Source: Candidatus Marinacidobacterales bacterium
GTDB taxonomy: Bacteria; Acidobacteriota; Vicinamibacteria; Marinacidobacterales; DATDRI01
Length of the DNA: 64,000 bases
NCBI GenBank assembly: GCA_965219415.1
Contig: CBDCNP010000002.1
Coordinates: forward strand, 1,248,001-1,312,000
Direction: 5' to 3'
The first letter of the stretch is position 1. The number at the start of each line of letters is the position of its first letter. The notes below the pieces were generated by a model that was given only the letters and a program-made list of their open reading frames with translations, did no database searches and was not told where the DNA came from. Below, in pieces: positions 1 through 63,932 of this stretch. A program made the position numbers and the translations under genes.

Positions 1-1829
1 CAGATCGTCGAACTCCACGAAATGGATCCACCCCATGGCGCGGCTGGGCACGCGCTCCTTCCAGGAGATGATCTCCCCCGGCACTCGGGGATTGAGCGGA
101 TGAGCTTCGTCGCCCCCAACGACGTAGAACTTCCCCGCCGACTTGCTTCGAAACGGCCACACCGAATGGTTCCACCCGGTGAGCTGAGGCATCCTGGCCA
201 TCTCCACCGGTCGAGCCGGTGAGCCGCCTAGGCCGCCTCCTCCGACATCGATCAAGATTAGGGCATCGGTGTTACCGGCCTGGTAGGTGATGCCGTCTTG
301 AACCCACACGTCATGCACCACGCGGCCCGGCGTCTGGGTCTCGAATCGACCTACCCGTACCGGCTTGGCCGGATCTTCGATGTTGATCGCGTCCCAACGC
401 CGACCGTTGTTCACCGCATAGATGTGATTGTCGTGGATAAAGACGTTGTGCACCCCGCCCGTCAGTTGATCGTCGAACCGAGAGAGGATGGTGACCTTCC
501 GCGGATCGCTGACGTCGAGGATGACCAAGCCGTTCCGCCGATTCGATGCACCTTCCCGGCTGATCACGCAAATCCGGCCGTCCTCCGAAACCTTCACGTC
601 GTTGACGGTGCGCGCGTCGACCTGCACCATATCGATGCGCTGCATGTTGGACGGATCGGTCACGTCATAGAAGTACGCGTGACCGTCGGCGTTCCACGTG
701 CCGTGGACAGCGTAGTCGCGACCATCGACGCCTTCCCAGACCCAGAGGTCCGAGGTCACTTGGTCCCGCACCGGCGCGTGCCCCACCAGCTCGATCGTTC
801 GTTCCACGTTGCGCGGGGTGATCCGCACGCTCTGTTCGGCCATTTGATCCCCGGAGGTCGCGACGACCGTGTACACGCCCGGCTGTTCGGCTACGAAACG
901 ACCGTCAGGGGCCAACTGACCAGGGGCACCGGCGCCGACCGTTCTAGCGCGGCTTGGATCGGGCCAGCTCTGGAGCGCGAAGCGAACGGGTGCGTCCGCG
1001 ATCGTCTGACCGGCAGAATCCCGGGCGGTCGCATCGAAGTGGACCACGTCGCCGGTGCGCGCTTCATCGCGGGAGGCGATCAGTTCGAGCGAATTCACCG
1101 GGCTGGGTTTGATCGTCAATGGTCGATTGACCCGGACGCCGTCGGCGGTATAGAGGCAGTTAGGGTCAACGTGCCCGGTTGGAGCGTGGTGAGGATGCCG
1201 GCGGCTTCTCCGGGGTAGAGCTCGGGTCGTGGTCTTCGGTAGAAGGGGTGCGCATCGGATGAACCTTGGAATTCCGGCCCAAACATCGTCACTCTGGCAA
1301 TCTCCGGGTCACTCACCCGAAGCTCGGCCCGTACGTCCCGCTGCCTCTGCCCCGCGTCCGCTCCGGTCACTCTCACCGGCACTGTCATACCCACATAGAG
1401 ACTCGATGGCAGGTCGGCGAACTCGAGCCGTGCGACCGGAGACGGCAGCACCTTCACCGGGATCCGGATCCGGACGCCCGGATCCCCTTCACGGTACAGA
1501 GCAGAATCCGTTCGGATGCCCGAAGGCGAGAACGCCACGACATCGTTCTCACCCGTTCGATGTCCCTTTACGATGCCGGTGGGCGTCACCGTAATCGAGG
1601 ATGACATCCCGGTGGCGAAAAAAATCACCGCGGCGTCCTCGAGCACGACACCCGCCTGATTCTTCACCACCGCCTCGAGCGTGGCTTTCTCTCCAACCCT
1701 CAACGTGACCGAGGCGGGACGAACCTCTATCGACACTGGCTCGTCAACATCCTGAAGCGAGGCGGCTTCGAGAGCGGCTAGCCCGCCTCCGATCACCATG
1801 AGCAAGGAGCCCATCATCGCTGCTTTCAT
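1..1829 (-). CDS. Ig-like + LVIVD beta-propeller exported protein, paralog 1; frameshift near 1150, runs off the window edge
   Basis: ATG at 1829 (MKAAMMGSLL, signal-like) after GAGGGGAG. After TLTAS another frame continues ADGVRVNRPLTIKP...TSDLWVWEGVDGRDYAVHGTWNADGHAYFYDV...GGVHN...VHDVW, nearly colinear with 1870..3984. Confidence 0.8.
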
Positions 1830-1869
1830 CGGTCTCCCCTCTTCTCTCTGTCTTCTATGTCTTCTTATG

Positions 1870-3984
1870 TCAGGGCGTTTCTGCCTCGGATTCTTCCGGA
1901 GGCACCAACCGCACCGCCCAGAGCCCGCTATAAAGATCGGCGAAGAAAATGTGACCCTTGTGGGGTTGCGGTCCCCAAGCGAAGGGCGCATTGGGAATGA
2001 ACCCTTTGGAGTCGTCGGAGTAAAACTTGGCGATCTCGCGCCCCTGCCGGTACAGGTCGCCCATGAGCTCGCCGGAAATGTCCACCACCCTGAGGCCAGC
2101 TTCGAAGTGAGCCACGAACATCACCTCGTTCTCCCAATCGATCCAGAGGTTGTGCGGCCCCGACTCCGGCACCTGGTAGCGTGCGACCTCCCGCGGATTA
2201 TTTGGATCGTCGAACTCCACAAAATGAAGCCATCCCATGGCGTAGGACGGTACCCGTTCCTTCCAACTAATAGCTACGCCGGGTGCGAGCGGGTTGTCCC
2301 AAAAGGCCTCGTCACCGCCGACCACGTAGAATTTCCCGGCCGACTTGCTCTGGAACGGCCACACCGCATGGTTCCAGCCGGTCAACTGCGTCATCCGTCC
2401 CATCTCCACCGGACGTGCCGGGGAGCCGCCTTGGCCGCCGCCTCCGACATCCACCATGATGAGACCATCGGTGCGACCGGCCTGATAGGCGACGCCGTCA
2501 CGGACCCACACGTCGTGCACCGAGCGGCCTGGGGTGGCGCTCTCGAATCGGCCCACTCGAACCGGATTCGCGGGATCCTCGATGTTGATCACGTCCCAGC
2601 GCCGCCCGTTGTTCACCGCATAGACGTGTTGGTCGTGAACGAAGATGTTGTGCACGCCTCCCGTGAGTTGATCGTCGAAACGGGAAAGTATTCTGACGTT
2701 TCTCGGATCGCTCACGTCCAGGATCACGATGCCGTTGCGTCGGGTCGAGGCGCCTTCACGACTGATCACACAGATCCGACCGTCCTCCGACACCTTGACG
2801 TCGTTGACCGTCCGCGCGTCGACCTGCACGATGTCGATCTTTTGCATGTCGGAGGGATCGGTTACGTCATAGAAGTACGCGTGGCCGTCGGCGTTCCACG
2901 TGCCGTGCACGGCGTAATCGCGGCCATCGACGCCTTCCCAAACCCAAAGGTCCGAGGTCACCCGATCCCGAACCGGGGCGTGACCCACGAGCTCGATCCT
3001 TCGCCTCACGTTGCGGGGTGTAATCCGAACGCTCCGGCGAGCCATCTCCTTGCCGGACCAGGCGACGACGGTGTAGATACCGGGCTGTTCGGCAACGAAG
3101 CTGCCATCGGGAGCCACCTGGGCGGAAGCGCCCGCCCCGATCGACTCGGCAAGGTTGGGATCGGGCCGAGCCTCGAGCGAAAAGCTAAGGGGAGCGTCGG
3201 TTACGGTCTGTCCCCGAGCGTCTTTCGCGGTGGCGCGAAAGTGAACAACATCGCCGGTGCGCGCTTTGCCGAGGGAAGCAGTCAGCTCGACGGATCGAAT
3301 AGGGTTCTCCTTGATCGTCAACTCGAGGTCCGCCGTTGCAGCCTCGGCGGTCGCAGTCAGTGTGGCCTTACCCGGTTTCAGGCCGGTGACTTCGCCGAAG
3401 CCATCCGTGGCGGCAACCGTTCCATCGTCGACCTCTAGTGTCGGACGAGCGTCCCGGCGTATCGCTCCACTGGTGTCGGTCGCCGTCAGACGGACCGGAA
3501 CGCTCGCGCCGGTGTAGAGAACGGCCGGGACGTTCACGAACTCCAGGCCGGCCAGCGGCGGTAACGGTACCGTCACCACCACCGTGGCTCGGATGCCGGG
3601 ATCGCTTCGACTGTAACTATCGGGATCACCCTCGAACGGTTTCAGTGGAGAGAGGGCAGTGAGCTTGTGCTTTCCCGGGCGGTAGGCCTGGGCGAGTCCG
3701 GACGGGGTGACACCGACGGAGTCCCTCGCGCCGGAGAAGAAAATTACCTGCGCGTCGGGAAGCACCGTGCCACTCGCGTCTTTGACGACCGCCTCCAATT
3801 GCGCCTTGTCGCCCACTTCCAACACCAGCGATGAAGGCTCGATCTCGATCGACCCCGGCCGCCACTCCGGTTCGGAAGATGCCATCTGCGCGGACGACGC
3901 GCTGTCCGTGAGCAAGACTCCGACGACGACTACCGCGGAAAGCACCCCGAGCCGGGATCCTCTCATACCATTCGTGCCTTTCAT
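1870..3984 (-). CDS. Exported Ig-like (Big_2-type) + LVIVD-repeat beta-propeller protein, paralog 2
   Basis: Signal peptide; Ig-like beta-rich repeats (IEIEPSSLVLEVG...); LVIVD-type blades GIVILDVSDP, GLIMVDV, GLRVVDIS. Confidence 0.85.
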   Translation of the reverse strand: MKGTNGMRGSRLGVLSAVVVVGVLLTDSASSAQMASSEPEWRPGSIEIEPSSLVLEVGDKAQLEAVVKDASGTVLPDAQVIFFSGARDSVGVTPSGLAQAYRPGKHKLTALSPLKPFEGDPDSYSRSDPGIRATVVVTVPLPPLAGLEFVNVPAVLYTGASVPVRLTATDTSGAIRRDARPTLEVDDGTVAATDGFGEVTGLKPGKATLTATAEAATADLELTIKENPIRSVELTASLGKARTGDVVHFRATAKDARGQTVTDAPLSFSLEARPDPNLAESIGAGASAQVAPDGSFVAEQPGIYTVVAWSGKEMARRSVRITPRNVRRRIELVGHAPVRDRVTSDLWVWEGVDGRDYAVHGTWNADGHAYFYDVTDPSDMQKIDIVQVDARTVNDVKVSEDGRICVISREGASTRRNGIVILDVSDPRNVRILSRFDDQLTGGVHNIFVHDQHVYAVNNGRRWDVINIEDPANPVRVGRFESATPGRSVHDVWVRDGVAYQAGRTDGLIMVDVGGGGQGGSPARPVEMGRMTQLTGWNHAVWPFQSKSAGKFYVVGGDEAFWDNPLAPGVAISWKERVPSYAMGWLHFVEFDDPNNPREVARYQVPESGPHNLWIDWENEVMFVAHFEAGLRVVDISGELMGDLYRQGREIAKFYSDDSKGFIPNAPFAWGPQPHKGHIFFADLYSGLWAVRLVPPEESEAETP

Positions 3985-4052: not shown

Positions 4053-6503
4053 TCATCGAGCGAGCTCTTCGAGCCTCTCCCGGGTGGCCGCGAATCTCTC
4101 CCTGATTCTGGGGATGGGCGCGTCGCCATAATTTTCGATCAGCCTGGCGTCGGCTACGTCCATCCACCGCAGCAGGTCGCTCGCTGCACGGCGGGCGGCA
4201 TCGGCGTTGCGGCTGCCGACTTGACCGAACCAGATCGGTGCGCTGTGGGCATACGGCATCCCGTCCATGACCGGCCAGGCGGTCGGTCCTCCGTAGGCGC
4301 GCGCCGCGATCCATCCGCCGGCGGGCGCTTTCACTCGACCGCCGAGACTCTTCTCGCCAGCGGCCGTAAAGCCGGGTCCCTCCCACACGACTTCGCCGTT
4401 CACCAGAACCTCGATCTTCTCGACCGGCGCCGGAGACCACACCTTCAGCGCCCAATCGACCTCGCCACCGGGTTGCACGACGCCTCCCGGTTCACGACCG
4501 CCCACCTCGAACTGCATCAACGGGCCGTTTGTCACAAATGTTCTGCCCGCCCTGAGCGCGGCCATGTAGCTACTTAGATTCAGAGGCCCGTCGACCCGTG
4601 CATAGACCCGGGCCGAGCCCACGCTCATGCTGCGGTACCAGTCGAGGAGAGCGTCGCTCCCTCCAGTGGGAACGATGTTCAACCCTAGGTTCAGCAGGCG
4701 GTGCCATGCTGCGCTCGTGCCGAGTGAATCGCTCCACAGGCACACGATCTCGAGCCCGTCCAGATCGCCGAGGACAGCATCCGGCACGAGTTCCATGGGT
4801 ATCCCGGTAGGACTGGCATCTTTCGGAAACGGATCAGCGGTGGAAACCGGGTGCACGTAAAAGCTGAAGCCACCTTGTTGGTGGGCATGGTCATGTGCGT
4901 CCGCCTTGAGGATATCCGCGTTTCGATAAACCGGATACCTGGGCCCCCAATAGTTCGGCCAGAAACGGGACGCGATGCCGATGAACGCGGTGTGTCCGAA
5001 GAAATGCGGGCGGACCTCCTGACCGAATACGATCAAGGGAGTACCGGCGCCGAGCCTACTCCAACCCCACCAGTCGAGATCCTTGATGCGCACGTCGAGG
5101 CTCGCTGCCACCGGCGTCGCCACGTCGACGTCCTCCGCCTGAAGGGGGATCACGAAATCTTCGGGAACCAACTTGTAGGTCCCATCCCAATCCAGATGGA
5201 TATGATGATCGCCCGAGTACCAGCCCGCGGACGACGGATCCCACATGGGCGTAAGCTCGAGCTCCACCGCTGTCGTCTCGCCGGCGCCGACGGTGCAGGT
5301 TGCCGATACCGGCGGCGCAGTAAAGCCGTGCGTCGCGGTGACCCGCACCTCCCCGGTGGGAACGTCGACGGTGGTGACACCTGACGAATACGTGTAAACC
5401 ACGCCGTTTTGGAGATCGAATCGCGCTTGACCCTGCTCCGGAAGCACCGGATGCCCATCTCGATCGAAGATCGCAAGGCGTGCGGGAACGGGGCCCGCCT
5501 CGCCTGCCATTCGTGTCGTGATGGTAAGCCGGCCTAGCTCTTCTCCCCAGTTCCACACCATCGGTGACACGTCGCGAACCTCTCCGCCCGCCGCCGCTAC
5601 CTGGTACACTTGGAAGCGCTGTCGCTCATCGGCCTCGACGAAATAGATATCGGCCCCGTCCGCACTCCAAGAGGGCGTTAGAGCCAGATAGGTCTCCGGG
5701 GCCAAGTGGATCTTCGACCCACCCTCTAGGTCTCTCAGCCAAAGATTCCAGCTATCGGCACCGGGCAAGTTCACGACAAGATTCCGTCCATCCGGGCTCA
5801 CCGCGGGTCGGGTCTGGGATGCGATGCCCGCCTCCTCCAGAACCTGGGTGCTGCCATCCCGCGTGTCCAGAAGACAGACCGCGTCCTGGGCGCCGCGTTG
5901 TTTTCTCAAGTAGACGAGCCGGAGATCGTCCGGAAGTGGCGACGGCTTCAGTTCCAGCCCCTTCTCGGTCGTCAAACGGGTCTTCGCGCCCGTCGCCAGC
6001 TCGAGGCGCCACAGATCGAGATCACCCGCTTCGGCGGAGCTGTACAAAAGAGAGCTCCCATCCCGAGAGAATGTGGGATCGAGGTCGAGCCCAGCCGTGT
6101 CGACGAGGACCGTCTCTGTGCCGTTGCGCAAATCCAACCCAACGATGGAAGTGTCACTTCCGTCGTCCCTCACGAACGCCAGGTGCCCACCGTCCGGGGA
6201 CCAGGCCGGTCTCGAGTCCATTCCCTGGCTCTTCGTCACGCGGCGGGCCTCCCGCGACGAAAGGTCGAGGAGCCAAAGCCATCCTCGCGCCGCAATGGCC
6301 AGAGTCTTACCGTCCGGCGACGGCGCCGGATCGCTCGGTCCGGCGCCCATCACCGGAAGCTCGTAACCTTCCAGATACAGGTGGCCTCGGTAACCCGCGA
6401 CCTTCGGATAGCGATTCGTCCACTGTGCGAACGTGGACGTCACCGATCCGGCGAGGGCGAACATCAGGCAACACGCGACACGGCACTTCACGGCTCGCAT
6501 CAT
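4053..6503 (-). CDS. TolB/PD40 propeller + CehA/McbA-like PHP-fold metallohydrolase, exported
   Basis: Signal peptide; repeated PxWSPDG motifs; metal motifs SGDHHIH, GQE, GH, HP, GGSD. Confidence 0.8.
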   Translation of the reverse strand: MMRAVKCRVACCLMFALAGSVTSTFAQWTNRYPKVAGYRGHLYLEGYELPVMGAGPSDPAPSPDGKTLAIAARGWLWLLDLSSREARRVTKSQGMDSRPAWSPDGGHLAFVRDDGSDTSIVGLDLRNGTETVLVDTAGLDLDPTFSRDGSSLLYSSAEAGDLDLWRLELATGAKTRLTTEKGLELKPSPLPDDLRLVYLRKQRGAQDAVCLLDTRDGSTQVLEEAGIASQTRPAVSPDGRNLVVNLPGADSWNLWLRDLEGGSKIHLAPETYLALTPSWSADGADIYFVEADERQRFQVYQVAAAGGEVRDVSPMVWNWGEELGRLTITTRMAGEAGPVPARLAIFDRDGHPVLPEQGQARFDLQNGVVYTYSSGVTTVDVPTGEVRVTATHGFTAPPVSATCTVGAGETTAVELELTPMWDPSSAGWYSGDHHIHLDWDGTYKLVPEDFVIPLQAEDVDVATPVAASLDVRIKDLDWWGWSRLGAGTPLIVFGQEVRPHFFGHTAFIGIASRFWPNYWGPRYPVYRNADILKADAHDHAHQQGGFSFYVHPVSTADPFPKDASPTGIPMELVPDAVLGDLDGLEIVCLWSDSLGTSAAWHRLLNLGLNIVPTGGSDALLDWYRSMSVGSARVYARVDGPLNLSSYMAALRAGRTFVTNGPLMQFEVGGREPGGVVQPGGEVDWALKVWSPAPVEKIEVLVNGEVVWEGPGFTAAGEKSLGGRVKAPAGGWIAARAYGGPTAWPVMDGMPYAHSAPIWFGQVGSRNADAARRAASDLLRWMDVADARLIENYGDAPIPRIRERFAATRERLEELAR

Positions 6504-11568: not shown

Positions 11569-13551
11569 TCAGTCCGTCGAATCCGTGTGCGCACCATTGT
11601 GCTCGGCCAGGAAGGCAACCATCCGATGGTATTGGTCGCGGAGCGACCCGGTGTGGCTAAAGCCGTGCCCCTCCCCGACGTAGGCAACGTAGTCCACCGC
11701 CTTCCCCTCTTTGATCATGGCGTCGTAGAGAGACTCCCCTTGCTCGGGCACAACGCCGGGATCGTCCTGTCCCTGAAGGATGAGGAGCGGGGAGCGGGCT
11801 TCGGCAGCGTAGCGGATCGGTGCCGCGCGTTGCCAAATCCCCGGGTTCTCGGCCGGGTCGCCGAGCTTGGCGAGGACGCGGACGTTGTAGAGCTTCCTGT
11901 CGGGCTGCTCGAGCATGAGCTCCCAGTCGGAAACGCCCACGCGAGAGATCCCGGCGCTACAGACCTCAGGGGCCTTGGTGATCGCCAACATCGTCATGTA
12001 CCCGCCGTAGCTACTTCCCCAACAGGCGATCCGCCCTGGATCCACCCCCACCTCTTTCGCCAGGAACTCCGCGCCGGCCACCACGTCGTCGAGTTCGCCG
12101 CCAGCGTAGTCCCGGTAGTTGGCCCGCTCGAACTCGGCACCGTACCCGATGTGGGTTCCGCGCCAGTTGATGAAGAGCACGCTGTAACCCTGCTGCACCA
12201 GGTACTGGTGGAAAGCGTAGTAGCGCAGCCCTCCCCAACCCTTCAGATTGATGCCGCCCTTACCATGGAAGAAGAGGAGTCCCGGGCCTGACCGGACGTT
12301 CCCGCGAGGTCGTAGGAGAATGGCCGGGACCTCGGTACCATCGCGGCTGGGGTAGCGAACTGCCTCGGGATCGACGAAGCCCGCGGTCATTCCGGGATCG
12401 AGCCTCGACTCCGTCAGGTGAAAAACGGGAGCCCCCGGCGTAGCCTCCTGAACGACGATCTCCGGTGGCTCGGTCGTGCTCGACCGTCGGTAGGCCACGC
12501 GGCTGCCGTCCGGCGACCACGCCGGATTCGTGCAGAAACCATCGGGCGAGATCCGCACCGGCTCGCCACCATCGGCGTCCACCACCCATACGTGTCTTTC
12601 CTCGACGTCGCCGGCACGACTCCCGATGAAGACGATTCGATCCTCGGTGGGGGACCACCGGGGGTGGTAGTCGACGTACGGTCCGGTGGTGATCTCGACC
12701 GGCTCGCCTCCCGCGACGGGGGCGACCCAAACGTGGTTGTAACCGGTGCGGCTCGAAAGATACACGATGCGAGTTCCATCCGGGGAAAAGTGGTGGTTGC
12801 CGTCGAAGCGGAACTCCTCGACACCCCGCTCGTAGGTTTCGGTGACCAATTGTTTTTGCCCCGAGCCGTCGAGGTTGCTGATCCACATCTCGTAGCCCTT
12901 CCAGTCCTCGAACCGCCTGATGAAAACTAGGCGATCCGATGCGGGCGACCAGATGGGAGAGTCCTCGTCCCTCGACGTGGTGGCGATCATCTTCGCCTCA
13001 CCTCCCGACGCGGGTACGATGCCCACGTCGGTCTGGTATCCGAACCCCGCCGGCGAGCCCGGTCGCGCCAGCGAGTCTTCGCGCTGCACGAAGAACGCGA
13101 TGTGCTTTCCGTCCGGCGACCAGTTGAGCACCATCCCTCTCGAGGGATACTTTCCCTCCTCGGTCGTCAAGCGAGCGGGCCGGCCGCCTTCCAACGGGAT
13201 CTTCCAAATGTGATCCTTCGAGACGTACGCGAGATACTTCCCATCCGGGGAAATCGTGGGAACCGACCGGTCCGAAAGGGGCGCCAGCTGCCGGAGCGTT
13301 GGGGCTCCTGGCTGCCCTGGTCCCGTGGCATCCGCGTCCGCCGCCCACAGCTCGCTTTCCCCACCCCGGCTCCAGGAGAAAGACACCTCCCCGCCCCCAG
13401 GCAACCACGCGGGTGCCCCGGTGTCCTTGATCTCGAGGGCATCTTCGATCGTGATCGTGTGTGGCTCACTAGGCCCACCGGCAGTGCAAGCACAGGTCGC
13501 CCCGGCAAGGACCAGGAAGAGAACACAATTAATCCGTTTCCATGCGAGCAT
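11569..13551 (-). CDS. S9 family (prolyl oligopeptidase/acylaminoacyl) peptidase with PD40 propeller, probable lipoprotein
   Basis: Lipobox-like N-terminus; WSPDG repeats; triad GSSYGG / QGQDD / EGHGF. Confidence 0.9.
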   Translation of the reverse strand: MLAWKRINCVLFLVLAGATCACTAGGPSEPHTITIEDALEIKDTGAPAWLPGGGEVSFSWSRGGESELWAADADATGPGQPGAPTLRQLAPLSDRSVPTISPDGKYLAYVSKDHIWKIPLEGGRPARLTTEEGKYPSRGMVLNWSPDGKHIAFFVQREDSLARPGSPAGFGYQTDVGIVPASGGEAKMIATTSRDEDSPIWSPASDRLVFIRRFEDWKGYEMWISNLDGSGQKQLVTETYERGVEEFRFDGNHHFSPDGTRIVYLSSRTGYNHVWVAPVAGGEPVEITTGPYVDYHPRWSPTEDRIVFIGSRAGDVEERHVWVVDADGGEPVRISPDGFCTNPAWSPDGSRVAYRRSSTTEPPEIVVQEATPGAPVFHLTESRLDPGMTAGFVDPEAVRYPSRDGTEVPAILLRPRGNVRSGPGLLFFHGKGGINLKGWGGLRYYAFHQYLVQQGYSVLFINWRGTHIGYGAEFERANYRDYAGGELDDVVAGAEFLAKEVGVDPGRIACWGSSYGGYMTMLAITKAPEVCSAGISRVGVSDWELMLEQPDRKLYNVRVLAKLGDPAENPGIWQRAAPIRYAAEARSPLLILQGQDDPGVVPEQGESLYDAMIKEGKAVDYVAYVGEGHGFSHTGSLRDQYHRMVAFLAEHNGAHTDSTD

Positions 13552-45385: not shown

Positions 45386-48300
45386 CTATTGGGTTTCCTC
45401 CTCCTTCGGCTTCGGTGGTCGGGGACGGTGCATGCTGAGACTTATTCCATCAAAGAACGTCTTCGTGCTCCTTTCCACGACGTGGTCCCCTTCGACCAAG
45501 TGGTCCAGGTTCGCTTTGTCCCACTGTAGACCCGCGGTCGCGACGAGCTTCATCCAATCGCCGTAAGCGGTCTCGTCAGGCGCTTCGGTGGCCCCGTAGA
45601 AGATCGTCACCTTCGGGTTCCTGACCATGAAATTGTCGCCCACCGTATCTCTGGTACCCGGATCTGCTTCCCATCCCTTGATCGAACTGTAGATGAGCAC
45701 GTCATTGGTGAAATCCAACTTGAAGTTTTCTGAATCGTGGGCGAAGCCAAAGCGCCGGTAGCGATCGTAGTTCCGCTCGTTGAGGGCCCTGAGCTCGGGG
45801 ACGGCGTTGATGTACTCGGTGATCCGCTCGCGGATCTGGAACGCCGCCTCCTTGTGCCGAGGATACTTGGGGTCGTCGAGGTAGTTGAAGCTCGGGATGA
45901 ACCAGCCGCGAGTCCCCCACCAGTCGCGGGATTCGGTGGCTCGATTGCGCACCCATGCGGCGTACTCCGAGAAGAGCTGGACCCATTCGTGCGAAGGGTA
46001 CCCATGAGGATTGAGAAAGATGTCCGGGAGCCAGGTCTGCCACAACTGCACGCGGTGCTTCGATTCTGGATAGATCGGATCGGAGTCCCAGCGGGTGACC
46101 AGGGTGACCCCCAGTGGGCCCAGGTACCCGGCATGAAGCATGTAATCGGGGGTGATCTCGTAGAGGTCGTACGCGAGCTGGGCACCATCCGCGTTCGTGA
46201 TGGGGTGCACCACGACGTTCACCCGGTCGAGCTTCTTCCGGAACTCGGGATCAGTCAAGAGCATCTCGGAGAGCCTCAAGAGGTGGCTCGTCGACGATAC
46301 CTCGTTGGCGTCTTGCCGACCGGAATAGACGATGGTGGGCTTGAGCGTGGTGGCCTTGGCGTGGGACCAGTGGGAAGCCTCGATCGGCGGCATCAGGTCC
46401 ATGACCCAAATGTCCTTGCCGAGGTAGCTCTCGCCGAGTTTATAGGCGTTGACTTCGTCGAAGGTCGACAGTTTGGCGACCAGCTCAGCCGCCTCCGGCG
46501 GTGGAATGGGCGTATCCCACTGGACGATGGGCCCGCCTTCGTATCGGTATCCGCTAGGCAACTCGGCGCGGATATCGGGGAAGGGTGCCGGCGTTCCGCT
46601 CTGGTCGAGTGAGATCCGTGCCTCCGTTGCCGGGTTGACCTCGTGTTCCCAGCCAGCCGCGATCGTCAAGACCCCGAGGTCGTGATACGCCAAGGCGTCC
46701 CGGTACAAACCCGCCCCCCGCAGGCCCTCCAGGTTGGCGAGAATCGCCTTCACTTGCTCGGCCGAAAGGATCTGTTCGTCGACCTGCTCGGCCCGCTTCC
46801 GCTTCACGAGCGCGTCGCGTTCATCCGTCTCGCTGTCCACCTTGACACGCAGGTCGAGTCGCTCGAGACCCGGGTGGCCGACCCGGACCCGAGCGGCCAT
46901 CGCCTTTGGCTTCTTGATTTTGACTTTGGGAACGTCGAGGCGCGCTTCACCACGGCGACCGCCGCGCTCGGCGTAGTCGATGACGACCGCCGGACGGTTG
47001 GTACGGAAACCGGAGAAAGTGATCTTTGCCTGCCCCGGCTTGCCGTCTCCCTTGGGACGCATGATGGGGATGACGCGCCCGATGTAGTCGAGCGCCTCGC
47101 CGCGGGTAAAGCGGCCCAGGACGTCGAAGTAGTGGAGGGTGTGGAAGTAGATTTCCTCATGCATCGCCTCCATTGAAGCGATGAGCTCCCTATCGAGGTC
47201 GATCAAGTAGTCGGGCTCGCTCAGGGTCAATTCCACGACGAGCTTCCCGAAATGAGGCGCGTCGGACTTCCTGGGCTTGCCCTTGGAATTCTTCATCACG
47301 TAGTCGTAGACTGCCGGCAGCGTCTTTGCCTGGTAGTGGTCCCAGAAGCGCTCGACGTCGGTGACGATCCTGCGATCCACGATCGTGTCGTTCCCCACCC
47401 GAGCGGTGATCCATCCGGTGGTCACCCGGACTTTCTCGTAATCGGGGAAGCGGTCGAAGAACGACCTCACGACGAACTTGGGCTCGAACGTCGACCGCAA
47501 GATCTCGGTCCCATCCGGGGCGGTGGCAACCGCCTCATAGGTGGGGGCGCCGATGGGCATCATCTCGAAGCCGATCTGATCCAAATCGAGCTTCAGCTCC
47601 CTCGCCAATATCTCGTCGATCGGGTAGAGCTCCAACATCCACCGCGACGGGGTGTTCATCGCCTGTTGTTTCCACTCCGGCGGAGGCCCAGACTCGGCGA
47701 ACCGAATGGTCAAATGATCGATCGTTTTCCCTTCGAGCGCCGGACGCACTACGTCGTAGAGCCAGCTGTAACCTTGCTTGTAGGCGGAAATAACGGTGAC
47801 TTGGGTGCCCGCCTCCGCGGCACCGGCGAGGATCAGCTCCGCCTTTGCCTGGCCTTCGATCTTCGCCCGGACCTCCGGCGGCTCGCTCAGGCGCACTTCG
47901 AGCACTACCGGTTGCCCCCTCCGGACTCCCGAAAGGACCTTAGAGCGGAAGCTCGTCCAGAAGTCGTCCACCTCGGAAGCCACCTCGAACTCCTCCTCGA
48001 AAATGATCGCGGCCTTCTCCACATCCCGGTCATCGATGATCACGTCCAGGGAGTCCGCGCCGAGTGCTGCGGCACGCTCTCGCACTACTTGCTCGAAGCC
48101 GTCGGCGGGCTTGTCGACGGAGACCACAACGTGGGCCGATTCCAGATCCTTCCCCGAGAGCTTCTCGGCCAACTTCTCCAACTTGTACAGCGCGGTAGCC
48201 GCCTGCCCGGAAGGGGATCGACCCGAAAGGAAGCGTCGCGCGTCCTCTTCGATGCCATCAATCGTGGTCCGATCCTTGCCGCGCTCCCAGACGTTGGGGA

Positions 48301-49603
48301 AGCGTTCGGCGACTTGCTGGAGTGCCCGTTCCACGCCCGCGCCGTCGGCTCCGGTTACCACCACCGCGCTCTTCTCCCCGAAAGCCTTGGGCACCACTTG
48401 GATGAGACCCTCGCCCGCTTCAAGGGGAGGGAGCTGCAACTTCCCCTCGTCCACTAGGCGCTCCACTAACGGGTGCCCGTGACCGATGAGCACGAGCGTC
48501 GGCTGGTCTTCCGGCTTTTCGATCGCCTTTGGATCGCGAGCAAGGGGAATAGAGATCCCCGCCGACTCGAGCCCAATGCGAGCCGCGAGATCGACTGTCG
48601 CTTCGATTCCCCCACCGGAAGGACTCAGCAACACGTCGACGCGGTCGGCGATCAGGTCCTCGTTGGAATCCCCGAGGAATCCCTCGGGAGTGTATATGTT
48701 CGAAAGATCGAGGTCCGACTTCGCGTCCGATCCGGGTCGAGGCGGCGTCGGCCCGCGGGTCGGGATCGCCGGAGAGCTCGGCACCTCCACTTCCACCGGC
48801 TGGGCGCCGGGAGCGGACAGGACCACGCGCAAGACTTCCGCGCCGGCGTAGGACAGCGGTGCACTCGCCTCGGACGCCCGGTTGGCCAGTGCGCGGAGCT
48901 CAGCCGCGGCCTTGCCGACATCGGTGTCAGATGCGAGCGTGGCCATCGCATCAAGCCTCATCAGTTTGCTCCCTCCGGTTCCTACATAGAGGGCCGGGAC
49001 CCATACCGCGTTGACCGAAATCTCTCGATCGGTCAAGAAGGCGCGGAGCTCCTCGACCACTTTTTCGAGGGTGGGACCTTCCGGATCCCAGACGAAGGGT
49101 AAGCGCCCCGACAGAACTTCGGCCGCGGCCCTGGTTCCCGTCTCGTCCGCTCCCGCCACCACCAACCACTCACGTCCATCCGCGGTGAGAAGCTTGACGA
49201 GGCCTTCGCCGCTCTCCAATTCCGCGAGGCCGACCTCGGTGGCCGCAACCCCGGCTCGCGTGAGGGCGGCCGACCCCACAAGAATCGCCGGCCCCGACGA
49301 CCCCTCCATGGAAGCGAGCGGGATGTCCATTGCCATCGTCTCGTAGCCGAGCCTCGCAGCGACGTCGGCTGCAGCAGCAACATCGCTGACCGTCGGTGAC
49401 TCCCCTACAACAATAGCGGCGTCGACGAAGTCGATGACCTCGTCGCCGTTGCGATCTTGAAGAATGCGACCAGGCGAGAAGACCGCCTCCAGTCCGGAGG
49501 GCGCAGGTTCCTGGGCGGTCGCGCCCCCACCCACCACGCTCATGAGAACGACGGCGGCTAGCACTGCGCGTAACGAGAAATTTCGATCCTGGATTAGTTC
49601 CAT
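45386..49603 (-). CDS. Giant exported protein with C-terminal M14-like domain, paralog 3 (HxxE changed to DxxE)
   Basis: Colinear with paralogs 1 and 2; GRQDANE, PITNADG, NPHGY, TEAPDE. Confidence 0.85.
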   Translation of the reverse strand: MELIQDRNFSLRAVLAAVVLMSVVGGGATAQEPAPSGLEAVFSPGRILQDRNGDEVIDFVDAAIVVGESPTVSDVAAAADVAARLGYETMAMDIPLASMEGSSGPAILVGSAALTRAGVAATEVGLAELESGEGLVKLLTADGREWLVVAGADETGTRAAAEVLSGRLPFVWDPEGPTLEKVVEELRAFLTDREISVNAVWVPALYVGTGGSKLMRLDAMATLASDTDVGKAAAELRALANRASEASAPLSYAGAEVLRVVLSAPGAQPVEVEVPSSPAIPTRGPTPPRPGSDAKSDLDLSNIYTPEGFLGDSNEDLIADRVDVLLSPSGGGIEATVDLAARIGLESAGISIPLARDPKAIEKPEDQPTLVLIGHGHPLVERLVDEGKLQLPPLEAGEGLIQVVPKAFGEKSAVVVTGADGAGVERALQQVAERFPNVWERGKDRTTIDGIEEDARRFLSGRSPSGQAATALYKLEKLAEKLSGKDLESAHVVVSVDKPADGFEQVVRERAAALGADSLDVIIDDRDVEKAAIIFEEEFEVASEVDDFWTSFRSKVLSGVRRGQPVVLEVRLSEPPEVRAKIEGQAKAELILAGAAEAGTQVTVISAYKQGYSWLYDVVRPALEGKTIDHLTIRFAESGPPPEWKQQAMNTPSRWMLELYPIDEILARELKLDLDQIGFEMMPIGAPTYEAVATAPDGTEILRSTFEPKFVVRSFFDRFPDYEKVRVTTGWITARVGNDTIVDRRIVTDVERFWDHYQAKTLPAVYDYVMKNSKGKPRKSDAPHFGKLVVELTLSEPDYLIDLDRELIASMEAMHEEIYFHTLHYFDVLGRFTRGEALDYIGRVIPIMRPKGDGKPGQAKITFSGFRTNRPAVVIDYAERGGRRGEARLDVPKVKIKKPKAMAARVRVGHPGLERLDLRVKVDSETDERDALVKRKRAEQVDEQILSAEQVKAILANLEGLRGAGLYRDALAYHDLGVLTIAAGWEHEVNPATEARISLDQSGTPAPFPDIRAELPSGYRYEGGPIVQWDTPIPPPEAAELVAKLSTFDEVNAYKLGESYLGKDIWVMDLMPPIEASHWSHAKATTLKPTIVYSGRQDANEVSSTSHLLRLSEMLLTDPEFRKKLDRVNVVVHPITNADGAQLAYDLYEITPDYMLHAGYLGPLGVTLVTRWDSDPIYPESKHRVQLWQTWLPDIFLNPHGYPSHEWVQLFSEYAAWVRNRATESRDWWGTRGWFIPSFNYLDDPKYPRHKEAAFQIRERITEYINAVPELRALNERNYDRYRRFGFAHDSENFKLDFTNDVLIYSSIKGWEADPGTRDTVGDNFMVRNPKVTIFYGATEAPDETAYGDWMKLVATAGLQWDKANLDHLVEGDHVVERSTKTFFDGISLSMHRPRPPKPKEEETQ

Positions 49604-49627: not shown

Positions 49628-51841
49628 CTAGACTCGGAAGAGGTACGTCCATTTGACGACGAAGCTTCTCTCGTTGAGGATCCAGATATCCCCCGGCTGG
49701 CTCACCCGCTCGTTGAAGACGACATAAATGTCGCTGCCGGGACGGTACGTGTAGCGCAAGCGAACATTGACACCGAATTCGCGGCTCACGTTATTCCACT
49801 GGACCAGTGCCGCTCCGAAAAGGCGAGTGTTGAGGGCGACGCTGGTGCGCATCGCCACTAAGTGGGTGCGGAGGTCTCCCGCCATCAGTCGTATATCACG
49901 AGTCGAGTAGTCGAGGCCAAGGAATAAATGCCGATTGACCTTGAGCTGGGTGACGGTGCCTAGGTCTTGTCGGGTGCCGTCGAAGAAGCCCCCACTGCTC
50001 AGGTTCACCGCTGTCGCGAGCGTCCGGTGTTGGGCAGAGACGAAACGAGCGTTCCAATGGTCAAATCGGTACTCGCCGGGGGCGACCTCGAGCACACCCG
50101 CGACCCGGAACGGCCGCTCGAGAGCCTCGTAAGACCGCAGCCAGGCGAAGGAAGCGACGTCGGCGCTGTCGAACTCGACCTCGACACCCGTCTCCAGATG
50201 GCGGGTTTCCAGCAACCCGCGGAGGTTCTCGACGTAGTCCAGCGAGGAGCGGAAGTAGACCTTGCGCACGCCCAGACGGCCGGGTCGGGGGCTCACCTGC
50301 AGGCGAACGAAACGACGGTCCATGTCGTCTCTCTGGACGAACCCCACCTCCGGCCTAAAGGTATCGCCCACCTGCATCCAGTCGGTTTCCAAACCCAGCA
50401 GATCGCTTTCTAAAAGGAGATGCACGCGGTAGGACGTGGAGCTCGTTCCAGGAGTGTCCTGATTGCTTCGGGCCCAGAACAGATCCACTTTGCTCTTGGA
50501 AAAGAAGGCGAAATTGGCGTCGAACCCCGCCACCAGGTTGGCAGAGGAATCGACGGGTCCGGTCCGGCGGCGATCGGTAAAAAGTAGACCGAGGCTCGAC
50601 CTCCCGAGAACGTCTCGCTTGAGCCGCAAGACGGAGAACGAAGTCGCAGGATAGAGGGCCAGGTCTTTGGTGCGCATCCCGAGAAATCCCAGACTGTAGT
50701 GCCCGAGCTTTCCGGTGAGCCGGGCCCCCCCGCGAATAGGCACCGGGCGACCTTCCTCCAGTCCGATCCTTCGACTGAAGAAAGGCAGGACGCGGTAGTT
50801 TCCCCGCCTCAATCCGAAATCGAAGATCCCGCGGCCTTCTTGAAAAAAGTCGCGCTTCTCGGGAAAGAAGAGTCCGAAACGCGTGAGGTTGATCTGCTGT
50901 TGGTCCACCTCGACGTCGGAGAAATCGGTGTTGACGGTCAAATCGAGGTTCAGGTTGGGTGTGAACCCGTACTTGATGTCGATCCCCGGCTGAAAGGCGT
51001 CCCGAGTGGGCAACTCTCCGGGTAACTCCTCTCGAGTCTCGACCGCCGCGGCGGTCACGAAGGGTTTGAACTCGAGGTTGCGGCTTTCGCTGATACCGTC
51101 CAGCCCCTCCAGCACCCCCGCCGAGGACAGTTTCCCGATTCCCGCGGTTGAGTACGACGCCGGGATGGCGGTCGCGTAGGTCCACTCGTTCTTATGCAGG
51201 ATCACGCGGCGGAAGTTGATTCCCCACCCAACATCCTCCCCGTTATAGCGAAGGCTCTTGAACGGAATCTCCACCTCCGCGGACCAACCTTCCGGTCCGA
51301 CGCGGGTCGCCACGTCCCAGACCGGATCCCAATATCGATTCCAATGGCGTCCTTCATCGGTGCAGGCCCAATCGTCACGGGCCCCGAGCGCGTTGAAGGT
51401 GAAGAGGTAACCGTTACGATGATCGTGGAACGTATCCAGGATGATGGAGAAGGTGTCGTCTCGCACGTGCATTCGACCGGGAGAATCACGGCGTAGCTCG
51501 TCGGCAATGATCTTTTGCGGATCGCTATAAAAGACCGTGACCCCGAAATACAGATTGTCGCGCGTGTAAACGATCCGGACTTCCGTTCTTTCGGTGGCCG
51601 GCTTCCCCTCGTCCGGAACTTGTTGAAGAAACTTGTCGAACCGAGGAGCATCCTTCCAGAGCGGCTCGTCCAGAACTCCATCGAGTCTCGGAGCCTCGGA
51701 TACCGGAACCGCGCTGAGTACCGTTTCGGCTTCCGCCACGGCCTGGTGAAGACCGGCCGCAAGCGCCTCCGTCCCCAACAAGAGGAGCGTTGCGAAGACG
51801 AGCAGAACCGGGACCGGTCGCAAAGGCCCTTTTCCTCGCAT
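49628..51841 (-). CDS. CBM9-like sugar-binding domain + DUF5916-like outer-membrane beta-barrel protein, copy 1
   Basis: P.LDGVLDE..W, ERTEVRI, NTDFS.VE.D, FFPEKR.FF.EG, FFSRRIG; ends KWTYLFRV; start uncertain (51841 or 51919). Confidence 0.85.
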   Translation of the reverse strand: MRGKGPLRPVPVLLVFATLLLLGTEALAAGLHQAVAEAETVLSAVPVSEAPRLDGVLDEPLWKDAPRFDKFLQQVPDEGKPATERTEVRIVYTRDNLYFGVTVFYSDPQKIIADELRRDSPGRMHVRDDTFSIILDTFHDHRNGYLFTFNALGARDDWACTDEGRHWNRYWDPVWDVATRVGPEGWSAEVEIPFKSLRYNGEDVGWGINFRRVILHKNEWTYATAIPASYSTAGIGKLSSAGVLEGLDGISESRNLEFKPFVTAAAVETREELPGELPTRDAFQPGIDIKYGFTPNLNLDLTVNTDFSDVEVDQQQINLTRFGLFFPEKRDFFQEGRGIFDFGLRRGNYRVLPFFSRRIGLEEGRPVPIRGGARLTGKLGHYSLGFLGMRTKDLALYPATSFSVLRLKRDVLGRSSLGLLFTDRRRTGPVDSSANLVAGFDANFAFFSKSKVDLFWARSNQDTPGTSSTSYRVHLLLESDLLGLETDWMQVGDTFRPEVGFVQRDDMDRRFVRLQVSPRPGRLGVRKVYFRSSLDYVENLRGLLETRHLETGVEVEFDSADVASFAWLRSYEALERPFRVAGVLEVAPGEYRFDHWNARFVSAQHRTLATAVNLSSGGFFDGTRQDLGTVTQLKVNRHLFLGLDYSTRDIRLMAGDLRTHLVAMRTSVALNTRLFGAALVQWNNVSREFGVNVRLRYTYRPGSDIYVVFNERVSQPGDIWILNERSFVVKWTYLFRV

Positions 51842-60856: not shown

Positions 60857-61747
60857 ATGGCAACCCGGCTGCGGCGCTCACTCCTTTACACTCCCGGATC
60901 CTCCGAGGACAAGATCCGAAAAGCCGGTCGCCGAGGCGCCGATGTCCTGATCCTGGACCTCGAGGACGGGGTCCATCCCGACGCCAAGGATCACGCCCGC
61001 GAACAAGTCGCCCGACTCATTGCGGAGGTCGATTTCGGAGGGGCCGAGGTCTTCGTCCGGGCCAATTCGATGTCCTCCCCCTGGGGAGCCCAAGACATCG
61101 AGGCCATTGCGGGCATGCGGCCCGAGGGCGTGGTGCTTCCCAAGGTGAGCGATGATGATGAAGTGCTCTCGGTAGACAAAAGGCTAGGCAAGACGACTCC
61201 CCTGTTCTTGATGATCGAAACGGCGGCGGGCGTAATCAATGTCGTCTCGCTGGCACGGTGCTCACCGCGGGTCGCCGGCCTCATCTTTGGTGCCGCGGAC
61301 TACCGGGAGAGCCTGCGGGTGCAGCCGCACCCAGAGGAGCGCGAGCTTTTCTTTGCCCGGAGTCAGGTGGTCCACGCGGCTCGAGCCGCCGGCACCGCGG
61401 AGGTTTTAGCCTTCGACACGCCCTGCTTCGAGTACCTCGACCACGAGGCGCTCGACCGCAGCGCTCGCCGCGCCCGTCAGCTAGGCTTCGACGGCAAGAC
61501 GGCCGTCCATCCGGCTCAGGTCGCTGCCATCAATACGATCTTCTCGCCGTCACCTTCCGAGGTGGCCCGTGCCACCAAGGTAGCGGCGGCGATGGAAGAG
61601 GCCATGGAGCAGGGCCGCTCGGTGGCCAGCTTGGACGGGGAACTGATTGAAGCGCTCCATCTCAAAGGAGCAAGGCGAACTCTGGAACAGGCGAAGGCGC
61701 TGGGACTACTGCCGGAGCCTAGACCTGAAACAGGTAAGTCCATTTGA
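60857..61747 (+). CDS. CitE/HpcH-HpaI family CoA-ester lyase (citramalyl-CoA lyase-like)
   Basis: RRSLLYTPG, LDLEDGV, VR.N, LPKV, IET, FG..D, GFDGK..HP.Q. Confidence 0.9.
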   Translation: MATRLRRSLLYTPGSSEDKIRKAGRRGADVLILDLEDGVHPDAKDHAREQVARLIAEVDFGGAEVFVRANSMSSPWGAQDIEAIAGMRPEGVVLPKVSDDDEVLSVDKRLGKTTPLFLMIETAAGVINVVSLARCSPRVAGLIFGAADYRESLRVQPHPEERELFFARSQVVHAARAAGTAEVLAFDTPCFEYLDHEALDRSARRARQLGFDGKTAVHPAQVAAINTIFSPSPSEVARATKVAAAMEEAMEQGRSVASLDGELIEALHLKGARRTLEQAKALGLLPEPRPETGKSI

Positions 61748-63932
61748 CGGTGAGGCTCCTTTCGTTGAGAACCCAGATATCGCCCGGCTGGCTCGTCCGT
61801 TCGTTGAAGACAATATAGAAGTCACTCCCTGGACGGTACATGTATCGCAAGCGAATATTGACTCCGAATTCCCGGCGTACGCTGTTCCACTGGATCAGCG
61901 CTGCACCAAACAGGCGAGTGTTGAGGGCAACACTGCTGCGCAGAGCCGCCAGGTGGGTGCGGAGGTCTCCCGCCAAGAGCCGTATATCACTGGTCGAGTA
62001 CTCGAGATCAAAGAACAAATGCTGGTTGACCTTGAGCTTCGTGGCCGCACCGAGGTCTCGACGAGTGCCGTCGAAGAAGTCCCCGCCCGCCAGGTTTACC
62101 GCGGCCGAAACGTTGCGGTGTTGGGAAGACACGAAACGAGCGTTCCAATGGTCGAAACGGTACTCGCCCGGGGCGATCTCGAGCACCCCGGCGACCCGGA
62201 AAGGTTGTTCGAGGGCCTCGTAAGAGCGCAGCCAAGTGAAGGAGAGCTCATCGGCGCCTTCGAACTCGACCTCGACGCCGGTCGCCAGGTGACGGGTTTC
62301 CAGTAGCCCCCGGAGGTTCTCGACATAGTCCAGCGAGGAGCGGAAGTAGACCTTGCGCATGCCCAGCCGGCCGGGTCGCGGACTCACCTGCAGCCCGAGG
62401 TAACGCCGGTCCATGTCGTCTCTCTGGACGAAGCCCACCTCCGGACTAAAGGCATCGCCCACCTGCATCCAGTCCGTTTCCAAACCCAGCAAATCGCTCT
62501 CCAGAAGGAGGTGAGCGCGGTAGGAGGAAGAGCTCGTTCCAGGGGTGTCCTGATTGCTTCGGGCCCAGAACAGATCCACCTTGCTCCTGGTAAAGAAGGC
62601 AAAATTGGCGTCGAACCCGACCACCTGGTTGGCAGATGGAGTCACTGGGCTCGCCGGGCGGCGATCGGTCCAGAGTAGTCCCACGCCCGACCTCCGGAGA
62701 ACGTCTCGCTTGAGCCGCAAGACGGAGAACGACGTCGCAGGGTAGAGACCCGTGTCCTGGGTGCGCATCCCGAGAAATCCCAGGCTATAGTGCCCGAGCT
62801 TTCCGGTGAGACGGGCTCCGCCCCGGATAGGCACCGGGACGCCTCCCTCGAGTCCGATTCTCCGGCTGAAGAAGGGCAGGACACGGTAGCTCCCTCGTCT
62901 CAACCCAAAGTCGAAGATCCCTCGGCCTTCTTGAAAAAAATCGCGTTTCTCCGGGAAGAAGAGCCCGAAGCGAGTGAGGTTAATTTGCTGCTGGTCTACC
63001 TCGACGTCGGAGAAGTCTGTGTTGACGGTCAGATCGAGGGTCAGGTTGGGTGTGAACCCGTACTTGATGTCGATCCCCGGCTGGAAGGCGTCCCGGGTGG
63101 GTACGTCCTCGACCCGAGACTCGACCGCCGCCGCGGTCACGAAAGGTTTGAACTCAAGGTTGCGGCTTTCGGTGATGTCGTCCAGCCCCTCCAGCACCGC
63201 CGCCGAAGACAGCTTCCCGATTCCTTGAGACGGGTGGTTATACCCGGGCGGGATGAGGGTCGCGTGGACCCACTCGTTCTTATAGAGAATCGCCCGACGG
63301 AGGTTGATGCCCCACCCGCCTGCCTCACCGTCATAGCGAAGGCTCTTGAACGGAATCTCCACCTCCGCCGACCAGCCGTCCGGCCCCACTTGGGTCGCCA
63401 CGTCCCACACTGGGTCCCAGTATCGATTCCAATGGCGTCCTTCCTCGGTGCAGGCCCATTCGTTGCGGGTGCCGAGCGCGTTGATGAGGAACAGATAGCC
63501 GTTGCGGTGGTCGTGAAACGTGTCCAGCATGATGGAGAAGGTGTCATCCTGGGCATACATGCGAGCCTGATCGTAGCGAAGCTCGTTGGCAATCATCTTG
63601 TGAGGTTCGCTGTAAAACACCGTGACGCCGAAATAGAGCTTGTCGCGGGTGTAAACGATCCGGACTTCCGTTCTTTCGGTGGCCGGCTTCCCCTCGTCCG
63701 GCACTTGTTGAAGGAATTTGTCGAAGAGGGGAGCGTCTTTCCAGAGCGGCTCGTCCAGAATCCCGTCGAGTTTGGGAGCCTCGGAAACGGGGATTGCGCG
63801 CAGAACCGTTTCGTGCTCGGCCGCCACCGGCGCTTGAACGTGACGAGGGCCCGCCACAAGTACCTCTCGCCCAACCAAAAGGAGCGTGGCGAGGACGAAG
63901 AGAGATGCCACCAGCAGAGGGCGGTGGGCCAT
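61719..63932 (-). CDS. CBM9-like + DUF5916-like outer-membrane protein, copy 2
   Basis: Colinear with 49628..51841, with long near-identical protein and DNA stretches; signal peptide; ends KWTYLFQV. Confidence 0.85.
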   Translation of the reverse strand: MAHRPLLVASLFVLATLLLVGREVLVAGPRHVQAPVAAEHETVLRAIPVSEAPKLDGILDEPLWKDAPLFDKFLQQVPDEGKPATERTEVRIVYTRDKLYFGVTVFYSEPHKMIANELRYDQARMYAQDDTFSIMLDTFHDHRNGYLFLINALGTRNEWACTEEGRHWNRYWDPVWDVATQVGPDGWSAEVEIPFKSLRYDGEAGGWGINLRRAILYKNEWVHATLIPPGYNHPSQGIGKLSSAAVLEGLDDITESRNLEFKPFVTAAAVESRVEDVPTRDAFQPGIDIKYGFTPNLTLDLTVNTDFSDVEVDQQQINLTRFGLFFPEKRDFFQEGRGIFDFGLRRGSYRVLPFFSRRIGLEGGVPVPIRGGARLTGKLGHYSLGFLGMRTQDTGLYPATSFSVLRLKRDVLRRSGVGLLWTDRRPASPVTPSANQVVGFDANFAFFTRSKVDLFWARSNQDTPGTSSSSYRAHLLLESDLLGLETDWMQVGDAFSPEVGFVQRDDMDRRYLGLQVSPRPGRLGMRKVYFRSSLDYVENLRGLLETRHLATGVEVEFEGADELSFTWLRSYEALEQPFRVAGVLEIAPGEYRFDHWNARFVSSQHRNVSAAVNLAGGDFFDGTRRDLGAATKLKVNQHLFFDLEYSTSDIRLLAGDLRTHLAALRSSVALNTRLFGAALIQWNSVRREFGVNIRLRYMYRPGSDFYIVFNERTSQPGDIWVLNERSLTVKWTYLFQV

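Follow-up and report, generated by a model that had tools for sequence, protein, structure and literature searches.

The stretch analysed here, a window of 64,000 nucleotides (contig CBDCNP010000002.1 of a Candidatus Marinacidobacterales bacterium, positions 1,248,001 to 1,312,000), is a patch of locally duplicated genes for exported hydrolases and surface proteins in a Vicinamibacteria-like acidobacterium. Among its gene families, the giant M14 enzymes and the atypical members of the gamma-glutamyltranspeptidase (GGT) family form the only conserved functional link. Judged from the gene context of relatives, the giant M14 is regarded, with moderate confidence, as the exported version of an M14 family, so far uncharacterised, that cleaves amide bonds of peptides with a pyroglutamyl cap (or a gamma-glutamyl linkage) and supplies 5-oxoproline to oxoprolinase. 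The strongest functional clue is the presence of three non-homologous 5-oxoproline systems beside this one M14 family in four phyla. The sequence-only reading of the window had grouped M14, GGT, LVIVD and DUF5916 proteins into one envelope system for modified peptides in general; this claim largely fails, and is replaced by a hypothesis on a large uncharacterised M14 family that is narrower and can be tested directly: peptide scavenging is retained for the relatives, and the context points to pyroglutamate (5-oxoproline) rather than to modified peptides generally.

Gene Neighbourhoods of the Giant M14 Family

At least 934 proteins of similar length match the giant M14 at E ≤ 1e-10 among 8,000 candidates. 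The M14 loci come from one GTDB scan; the best 80 of its 570 confirmed stretches were kept, giving 79 loci with flanks of up to 10 kb and about 1.23 Mb of sequence; the partners were found by clustering the flanks, annotating representatives and recounting by tblastn. Oxoprolinase genes are present in 32/79 loci, mostly within 1.1 kb of the M14 gene, with PxpA in 27, PxpB/C in 3 and OplA/B in 7, the last scoring below the caprolactamase cut-offs, which makes "oxoprolinase" a family label for them. An organic-acid transporter of the major facilitator superfamily (MFS), whose best models are aromatic-acid and sialate:H+ symporters, accompanies 29/79 loci, and a TonB-dependent receptor of the OMP_b-brl_4 family, found in 19/79, is the recurring uptake partner instead of DUF5916. 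A second giant M14 occurs in 12/79 loci, the typical order being a divergent M14, the receptor, M14, PxpA or OplAB, and the MFS gene.

In a quick IQ-TREE phylogeny of 88 rows, from which rows shorter than 850 aa or lacking the zinc motif were left out, the oxoprolinase genes are spread over the M14 tree in at least five gene orders, compared with one order in one 21-row clade for the syntenic control rfbA (16/79 loci). According to our own grouping, in which a few records bear other taxon labels, oxoprolinase genes accompany 31/49 loci of the Acidobacteriota clade versus 1/30 of the Gemmatimonadota clade. Two proposed regularities were rejected: PxpA and OplAB are not mutually exclusive, as both occur in loci L021 and L025, and tandem M14s are not pairs of the types carrying His and Asp as first zinc ligand, as the tandem partners belong to the divergent clade that retains Arg127. 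In addition, the neighbours of an Asp-type M14 were seen to include pxpA and pxpBC, along with genes for a biotin ligase and a pyruvate-carboxylase-B-like protein (L001:14106-18342 and L002:7993-13864).

These arrangements recall the concept of the polysaccharide utilisation locus, as the relatives share with it a receptor, exported hydrolases, an inner-membrane transporter and cytoplasmic catabolism; some of them (L015, L021 and L039) also have a two-component pair upstream. They differ in their peptide or lactam substrate, as presumed here, in the acidobacterial OMP_b-brl_4 receptor, and in that no SusD-like gene was recognised in them. The description of the window as such a system thus stands for the peptide-scavenging loci of the relatives but not for the window itself, which has no receptor.

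Short Relatives in Cultured Bacteria

When plasmid records were searched by tblastn, the M14 catalytic domain matched 25 and the Enterococcus protein 47, and 17 plasmid loci of short M14 relatives were examined. In the 13 loci tested with the giant-M14 profile, the middle and catalytic regions both match (E 1e-121 to 5e-18) and the family motifs are shared. Genes for 5-oxoproline metabolism are found in 7/17 loci, from Enterococcus, Deinococcus and Alphaproteobacteria: two Enterococcus species have the order proB-M14-DUF969-DUF979-pcp, Deinococcus ABC-M14-pxpBCA, Ketogulonicigenium ABC-M14-GntR-pxpA-pxpBC, and Phyllobacterium and Rhizobium oxoprolinase-regulator-ABC-M14 (one of these being locus L092), while in R. 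etli pxpA lies about 7.7 kb from the M14 gene. One further locus has proA, and nine have neither; a proline iminopeptidase-family gene is present in 4/5 Deinococcus loci. The ATP-binding cassette (ABC) transporter upstream of the short forms is of the peptide type, and its best models include GsiB and a fused ATPase of the GsiA kind, although all Gsi scores are below the cut-off (168–219 bits versus 594 for the substrate-binding protein).

The same genes that flank the M14 family in relatives make up the known 5-oxoproline utilisation loci (pxpABC with a transporter, pcp with DUF969/979, and OplAB/CapAB). The function of PxpABC and the sources of 5-oxoproline are described in the accessible passages of PMC13274462, and DUF969/979 is given as a likely 5-oxoproline transporter in those of PMC12795558; an M14 enzyme or a TonB receptor does not appear in these passages, and none of the genes of those loci is found in the window.

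Proposed Pathway and Points Against It

In the relatives, peptides would enter through the TonB-dependent receptor, and the long exported M14, together with GGT-like and S9 peptidases, would free 5-oxoproline in the periplasm. The organic-acid MFS transporter would then bring it into the cell, where PxpABC or OplAB would open it to glutamate; the short cytoplasmic M14 forms would act after peptide-type ABC import. Regarding the atypical GGT, its uncharged aromatic pocket could, more speculatively, let it act as an acylase on a neutral acyl group, for instance pyroglutamyl. The cysteine enzyme Pcp also has an aromatic pocket.

Several observations weigh against this pathway. The 79 loci represent the best 80 of 570 stretches rather than a random sample; PxpA usually occurs without PxpBC, and many of its 27 cases are inherited synteny. 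Among the plasmid loci, 10/17 show no 5-oxoproline gene. The window carries no homolog of Pxp, Opl, Pcp, the TonB receptor or the C1-type MFS, and its M14s branch near those of Gemmatimonadota and Marinacidobacterales, two groups in which M14 mostly has no oxoprolinase gene beside it (0/3 Marinacidobacterales loci and 1/30 loci of the Gemmatimonadota clade have one). The function would be transferred to the window copies by homology alone, and their oxoprolinase and receptor partners would have to lie elsewhere in the genome. Moreover, the M14 residue equivalences given below rest on sequence-motif alignment and not on superposition, and some window-type M14s may have weak activity or a different action, because of the Tyr at the Arg127 position and the Asp in place of His69 in M14 #3.

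Anatomy of the Giant M14 Enzymes

The three window copies (1,405–1,433 aa; pairwise identity 59–66%) are M14 #1 (19965..24260, minus strand), M14 #2 (36610..40851, plus strand; the open reading frame (ORF) opens at 36553 and the likely ATG is at 36610) and M14 #3 (45386..49603, minus strand). M14 #1 has a signal, domains resembling S-layer and BcsB proteins and a C-terminal carboxypeptidase A fold with the motifs HANE, HG and EAPDET. Both parts of M14 #3 are predicted to be folded: the C-terminal 416 aa were modelled as a carboxypeptidase A fold (pLDDT 80), whereas the model of the 960 aa before the catalytic part reaches a pLDDT of 91. The catalytic model aligns with 7eqx over 250 residues (Z 23.3, root-mean-square deviation 2.9; Foldseek E 3e-9), placing the protein in the peptidase M14 clan at the level of the predicted fold; by sequence, no M14 entry of the PDB was matched, and M14 #3 gave nothing there at E ≤ 1. 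The N-terminal region resembles an archaeal S-layer anchoring domain (Z 13.3 to 9fsa) and BcsB (Z 14.7 to 6yg8), its remaining parts being without a clear structural match. Fold neighbours include the acylases AspA, AstE and DoeB, as well as MpaA, CphZ and the cytosolic carboxypeptidases (CCPs).

Besides the common catalytic fold, the family shares with the M14 metallocarboxypeptidases (CPA/CPB, carboxypeptidase T and the bacterial cytosolic carboxypeptidases 4b6z and 4a37) the HxxE...H zinc ligands and the general base, the equivalents of Glu72, His196 and Glu270 being invariant in 122/122 sequences. The first zinc ligand is His in 86/122 and Asp in 36/122, the latter group including M14 #3 (motif RQDANE). 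In contrast, Asn144-Arg145 is absent from all aligned relatives, the position of GVDLNR reading GMGPSS, GVGVQE or GVTLVT, and the Arg127 position is Tyr in all three window M14s, although the short relatives and a divergent clade from Acidobacteriota retain Arg127. In the available passages of PMC3940198, Asn144 and Arg145 of M14 carboxypeptidases are the residues to which the substrate's C-terminal carboxylate binds. The giant forms also differ from the metallocarboxypeptidases by about 1,000 extra N-terminal residues, and the fold matches share 9–17% identity.

In the specificity loop, the three window paralogs are diverged. It was also observed that the first ~200 aa of M14 #3 are nearer to M14 #1 (66–75% versus 45–53%) and that the sequence is nearer to M14 #2 thereafter (regions 49049-49621 and 23706-24278), which suggests a mosaic or gene conversion.

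Anatomy of the Atypical GGTs

GGT #1 (18275..19951, minus strand) lies directly downstream of M14 #1, and GGT #2 (26530..28236, minus strand), of the same subfamily, is 55% identical to it. Both belong to peptidase family T03, with 440 and 433 bits to TIGR00066 against a cut-off of 358; thus, they keep the family profile and the nucleophile of gamma-glutamyltranspeptidases and of GGT-like acylases (YwrD type and cephalosporin acylase 2nlz). Thr378 aligns with position 1 of the small chains, and the equivalents of Thr391, Thr409 and Gly483-Gly484 are invariant in 57/57 subfamily members. The residues of the gamma-glutamyl pocket are replaced by hydrophobic ones: relative to the E. coli enzyme, R114 is I/V in 54 of the 57 members, Q430 is G in 56, D433 is Y in 57 and S462/S463 are F/V in 53/54, while N411 is lost (Met or a short deletion). 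By alignment, the window GGTs therefore do not have the residue set of true gamma-glutamyl transpeptidases (R114, N411, Q430, D433, S462 and S463), of which we take N411 and Q430 to be gamma-glutamyl-binding positions. The motif is present in 118 of the top 120 matches; the subfamily is small, with no more than about a dozen 50% clusters that clearly exceed the 428 bits of E. coli GGT. As reported in the accessible part of PMC8062742, R114, D433 and the S462/S463 motif bind the gamma-glutamyl group, R114L abolishes activity and changes of D433 shift GGT towards acylase; the same passages describe YwrD as intracellular, in contrast to the exported-type N-termini of the window proteins. These alignments bear out the proposal that the M14 and GGT pockets of the window are altered.

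Alternative Functions and Significance

The GGT-family partner, the proA or proB neighbours, the GsiA-like and GsiB models for the ABC transporter that precedes the short M14 genes and the isopeptide-cleaving fold neighbours (MpaA, CphZ and CCPs) would also fit a glutathione-like or other gamma-glutamyl or isopeptide substrate, cut by M14 and GGT, with 5-oxoproline as a by-product to be cleared. This is unlikely, as all the Gsi scores fall below the cut-off and the GGT has lost the gamma-glutamyl-binding R114, Q430, D433, S462 and S463.

Slightly less probable is that the M14 is a lactam hydrolase acting on 5-oxoproline itself, in Enterococcus as a third type of 5-oxoprolinase in which a ProB-like kinase would activate the substrate and the M14 open it. 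The Enterococcus loci already possess Pcp to free pyroglutamate and have no pxp gene; furthermore, 5-oxoproline is geometrically an N-acyl amino acid, and AspA, AstE and DoeB, which act on N-acyl amino acids, are M14-fold neighbours. Against it, the exported forms would work in a periplasm without ATP, the full pxpABC beside M14 in Deinococcus and Ketogulonicigenium would be redundant, and the short forms follow peptide-type ABC transporters.

A further reading, improbable, takes the giant M14s for exported peptidases of a general kind or for surface proteins, and their link with oxoprolinase for inherited synteny that has no functional meaning. The N-terminal S-layer-anchoring and BcsB-like domains, the mixed neighbourhoods in Gemmatimonadota and the presence of rfb genes in 16/79 loci would suit this explanation, but three non-homologous 5-oxoproline systems flanking the family in four phyla are not expected from synteny.

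The hydrolysis of pyroglutamyl-capped peptides thus stays the preferred function. A pyroglutamate cap makes peptides resistant to ordinary aminopeptidases, and the spontaneous formation of 5-oxoproline is ubiquitous. Bacterial release of the pyroglutamyl residue is credited to the cysteine Pcp enzymes (PMC13274462). The components are variants of known families; together, they could tentatively represent an unrecognised branch of pyroglutamate metabolism, where a zinc M14 family and also a GGT-fold acylase would count as new classes of pyroglutamyl-peptide enzymes, loci of TonB receptor, M14, oxoprolinase and MFS would be found in abundant soil and marine Acidobacteriota, and the Enterococcus M14 with its ProB-like kinase would be perhaps a third 5-oxoprolinase. 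If true, a concrete nutrient niche for Vicinamibacteria would follow. With the present reading, the at least 934 long proteins and the short forms of culturable Deinococcus, Alphaproteobacteria and Enterococcus gain a specific, testable substrate hypothesis. In a literature search that left most subscription papers outside reach, no description of the M14 family, the atypical GGT subfamily or the locus was found, nor any paper on DUF5916.

Neighbourhood Test of the Proposed Four-Family System

All six-frame ORFs of the 79 loci were searched with 30 window proteins, the kinase-TPR protein serving as an unrelated control. Matches near M14 were found in 17 loci for S9, 7 for GGT, 6 for PHP, 5 for DUF5916, 3 for LVIVD and 1 for M42, compared with 5 for the control; LVIVD, DUF5916, M42 and PHP were accordingly rejected as conserved M14 partners, and the flank data speak against the sequence-only reading for LVIVD and DUF5916, both at or below the control. 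The LVIVD matches (39–40% identity) come from one Gemmatimonadota clade and the opposite strand, and DUF5916 lies 3–7 kb from M14 and is never adjacent. The loci with LVIVD (3/79), DUF5916 (5/79) and atypical GGT (5/79) do not overlap, and none holds three or more of the four families. The interleaved catabolic genes, also suggested as parts of the system, are found in 0–1 of the 79 loci: PrpD and acyl-CoA dehydrogenase in 1/79 each, and the window sarcosine oxidase, racemase, MFS, esterase, thiamine pyrophosphate (TPP) enzyme, aldehyde dehydrogenase, ComD/E, CitE, CoA-transferase and MaoC in 0/79 each.

The GGT pairing fared better, with the atypical subfamily in 5 of the 7 GGT loci, in three arrangements; in two (L021 and L037) it is adjacent and co-oriented, with four copies in L037. 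A second, indirect linkage test counted exact matches of longest-contig size below 100 kb between hit lists, with an offset null: M14-GGT gave 4 (null mean 0.23), LVIVD-GGT 2 (null 0.40, p ~0.06) and LVIVD-M14 0. On account of the flank counts and these matches, the M14-GGT link holds and the four-family system fails; LVIVD, DUF5916 and the catabolic genes count as co-residents of the window and not as demonstrated parts. Patches of paralogs are also not unique to the window: on one Ca. Marinacidobacterales chromosome, the neighbouring loci L010 and L037 have between them three M14s and four atypical GGTs within ~43 kb; LVIVD and DUF5916 are absent from the fetched stretches of both loci. A single envelope system of the four families with DUF5916 as uptake barrel is therefore very unlikely, despite the tight co-oriented pairs of the window, the two LVIVD-GGT contig matches and the co-oriented run of M14, oxoprolinase (OplAB), S9 (58% to the window S9) and DUF5916 in sister loci L015 and L023, as LVIVD-type proteins are very common and a different receptor family, OMP_b-brl_4, fills the uptake slot.

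Inventory and Integrity of the Window

ORF listing and family scans agree with the inventory of the sequence-only reading (three giant M14, two GGT-family, three Ig/LVIVD and two DUF5916 proteins) and show, besides these, an M42, an S9 and a CehA/McbA PHP-like hydrolase; the five co-oriented pairs that it named are all present, with intergenic gaps of 13–71 bp. "Hydrolase set" is apt for M14, GGT, M42, S9 and PHP, but not for LVIVD and DUF5916, where no catalytic domain was found. Judged by a hydropathy heuristic and not by SignalP, all 12 exported-family N-termini tested hold a hydrophobic stretch (KD10 2.2–3.6, versus −0.1 to 1.7 in four cytoplasmic controls), so signal peptides are credible for the intact copies, LVIVD #1 not being an intact ORF. 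By eye, Gln comes after the signal peptide in 7/12 proteins (M14 #1, M14 #3, both GGTs, LVIVD #2, M42 and PHP), which recalls the Bacteroidetes Q-rule outlined in the available part of PMC5837995; a crude proteome-wide check on relatives gave 14–16% Gln and was too noisy to use.

A chimeric join, the worry raised for this contig, is unlikely, because there are no Ns, GC is even (0.57–0.65), 4-mer use is even in all 16 bins (correlation 0.93–0.97), and proteins 99% identical to M14 #2 and M14 #3 are listed with one common longest contig of 38,006 bp, from another assembly. Named homologs of window proteins are from Vicinamibacterales/Vicinamibacteria. The window gave no tRNA or Rfam match, and promoter and terminator counts over 17000-36800 are no higher than in shuffled sequence.

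Other Genes of the Window

The exported S9 peptidase (11569..13551, minus strand) has close homologs in the M14-oxoprolinase runs of L015 and L023, which count as one event, and is a possible accessory of M14. The M42 aminopeptidase (40923..42101, plus strand) has a signal-like N-terminus, and its pairing with M14 is not conserved (1/79). Near M14 elsewhere, the PD40 and CehA/McbA-family (PHP-like) metallohydrolase (4053..6503, minus strand) has distant homologs only; upstream of its gene lie a choice-of-anchor C/DUF642-like exported protein (6500-7060, minus strand) and the Ser/Thr kinase-TPR membrane protein (7071-10067, minus strand).

LVIVD #1 (1..1829, minus strand), a tandem duplicate of #2 (80% identity over 372 aa), is cut by the window edge and carries one frameshift near 1120-1140; ORF 1116-1991 encodes the signal and the Ig part, and frame 1-1119 the remainder. 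LVIVD #2 (1870..3984) and #3 (28264..30381), both on the minus strand, join Ig-like parts to LVIVD repeats, and PDB matches are limited to the Ig-like parts; for #3, the GGT link is weak and an M14 link was not seen. At least 7,598 of 8,000 candidates are LVIVD-type proteins at E ≤ 1e-30. The propeller region of #3 shows four His invariant in 51 sequences (H442, H487, H535 and H613, in HN/HD motifs), which may form a central metal site in this very large unannotated family.

DUF5916 #1 (49628..51841, CBM9-like plus DUF5916), whose adjacency to M14 is not conserved, and its recent duplicate #2 (61719..63932), both on the minus strand, are 81% identical as proteins; the genes are direct repeats of 83% nucleotide identity bracketing a 10-kb block of PrpD, acyl-CoA, TPP, aldehyde dehydrogenase, ComDE-like and CitE genes. 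Their structural-atlas matches are CBM9-like/DUF5916 clusters only, and the sequence of #2 found nothing in the PDB at E ≤ 1.

Family scans also confirm the sarcosine oxidase, proline-racemase-family, MFS, ComDE-like and acyl-CoA/CitE genes; the labels C5-dicarboxylate and ComDE hold as resemblances, with scores below the NCBIfam cut-offs. The proline-racemase-family protein (17251-18270, plus strand) keeps MCGH but has DRSPGGTG, without the second Cys or Thr of the motif; because of this loss, it does not look like a standard racemase, nor like a T3LHyp dehydratase. Next to it, the MFS is PgtP/UhpC-like. An ORF of 512 aa with coding-like GC3 (third-position GC; 43403-44941, minus strand) has no Pfam or NCBIfam match and no homolog in the 79 loci. 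The exported esterase-family (PF00756) gene (13660-15409, plus strand) is in two frames, split near 14357-14366 at an AC repeat and a C5 run, which could be an assembly indel. Finally, the hydrolase patch is broken up at 10287-11416, 24546-25258 and 42168-43184 by toxin-antitoxin-type nucleotidyltransferase remnants (DUF6036, DUF2204/AbiEii-like) and an HNH/DUF222 gene.

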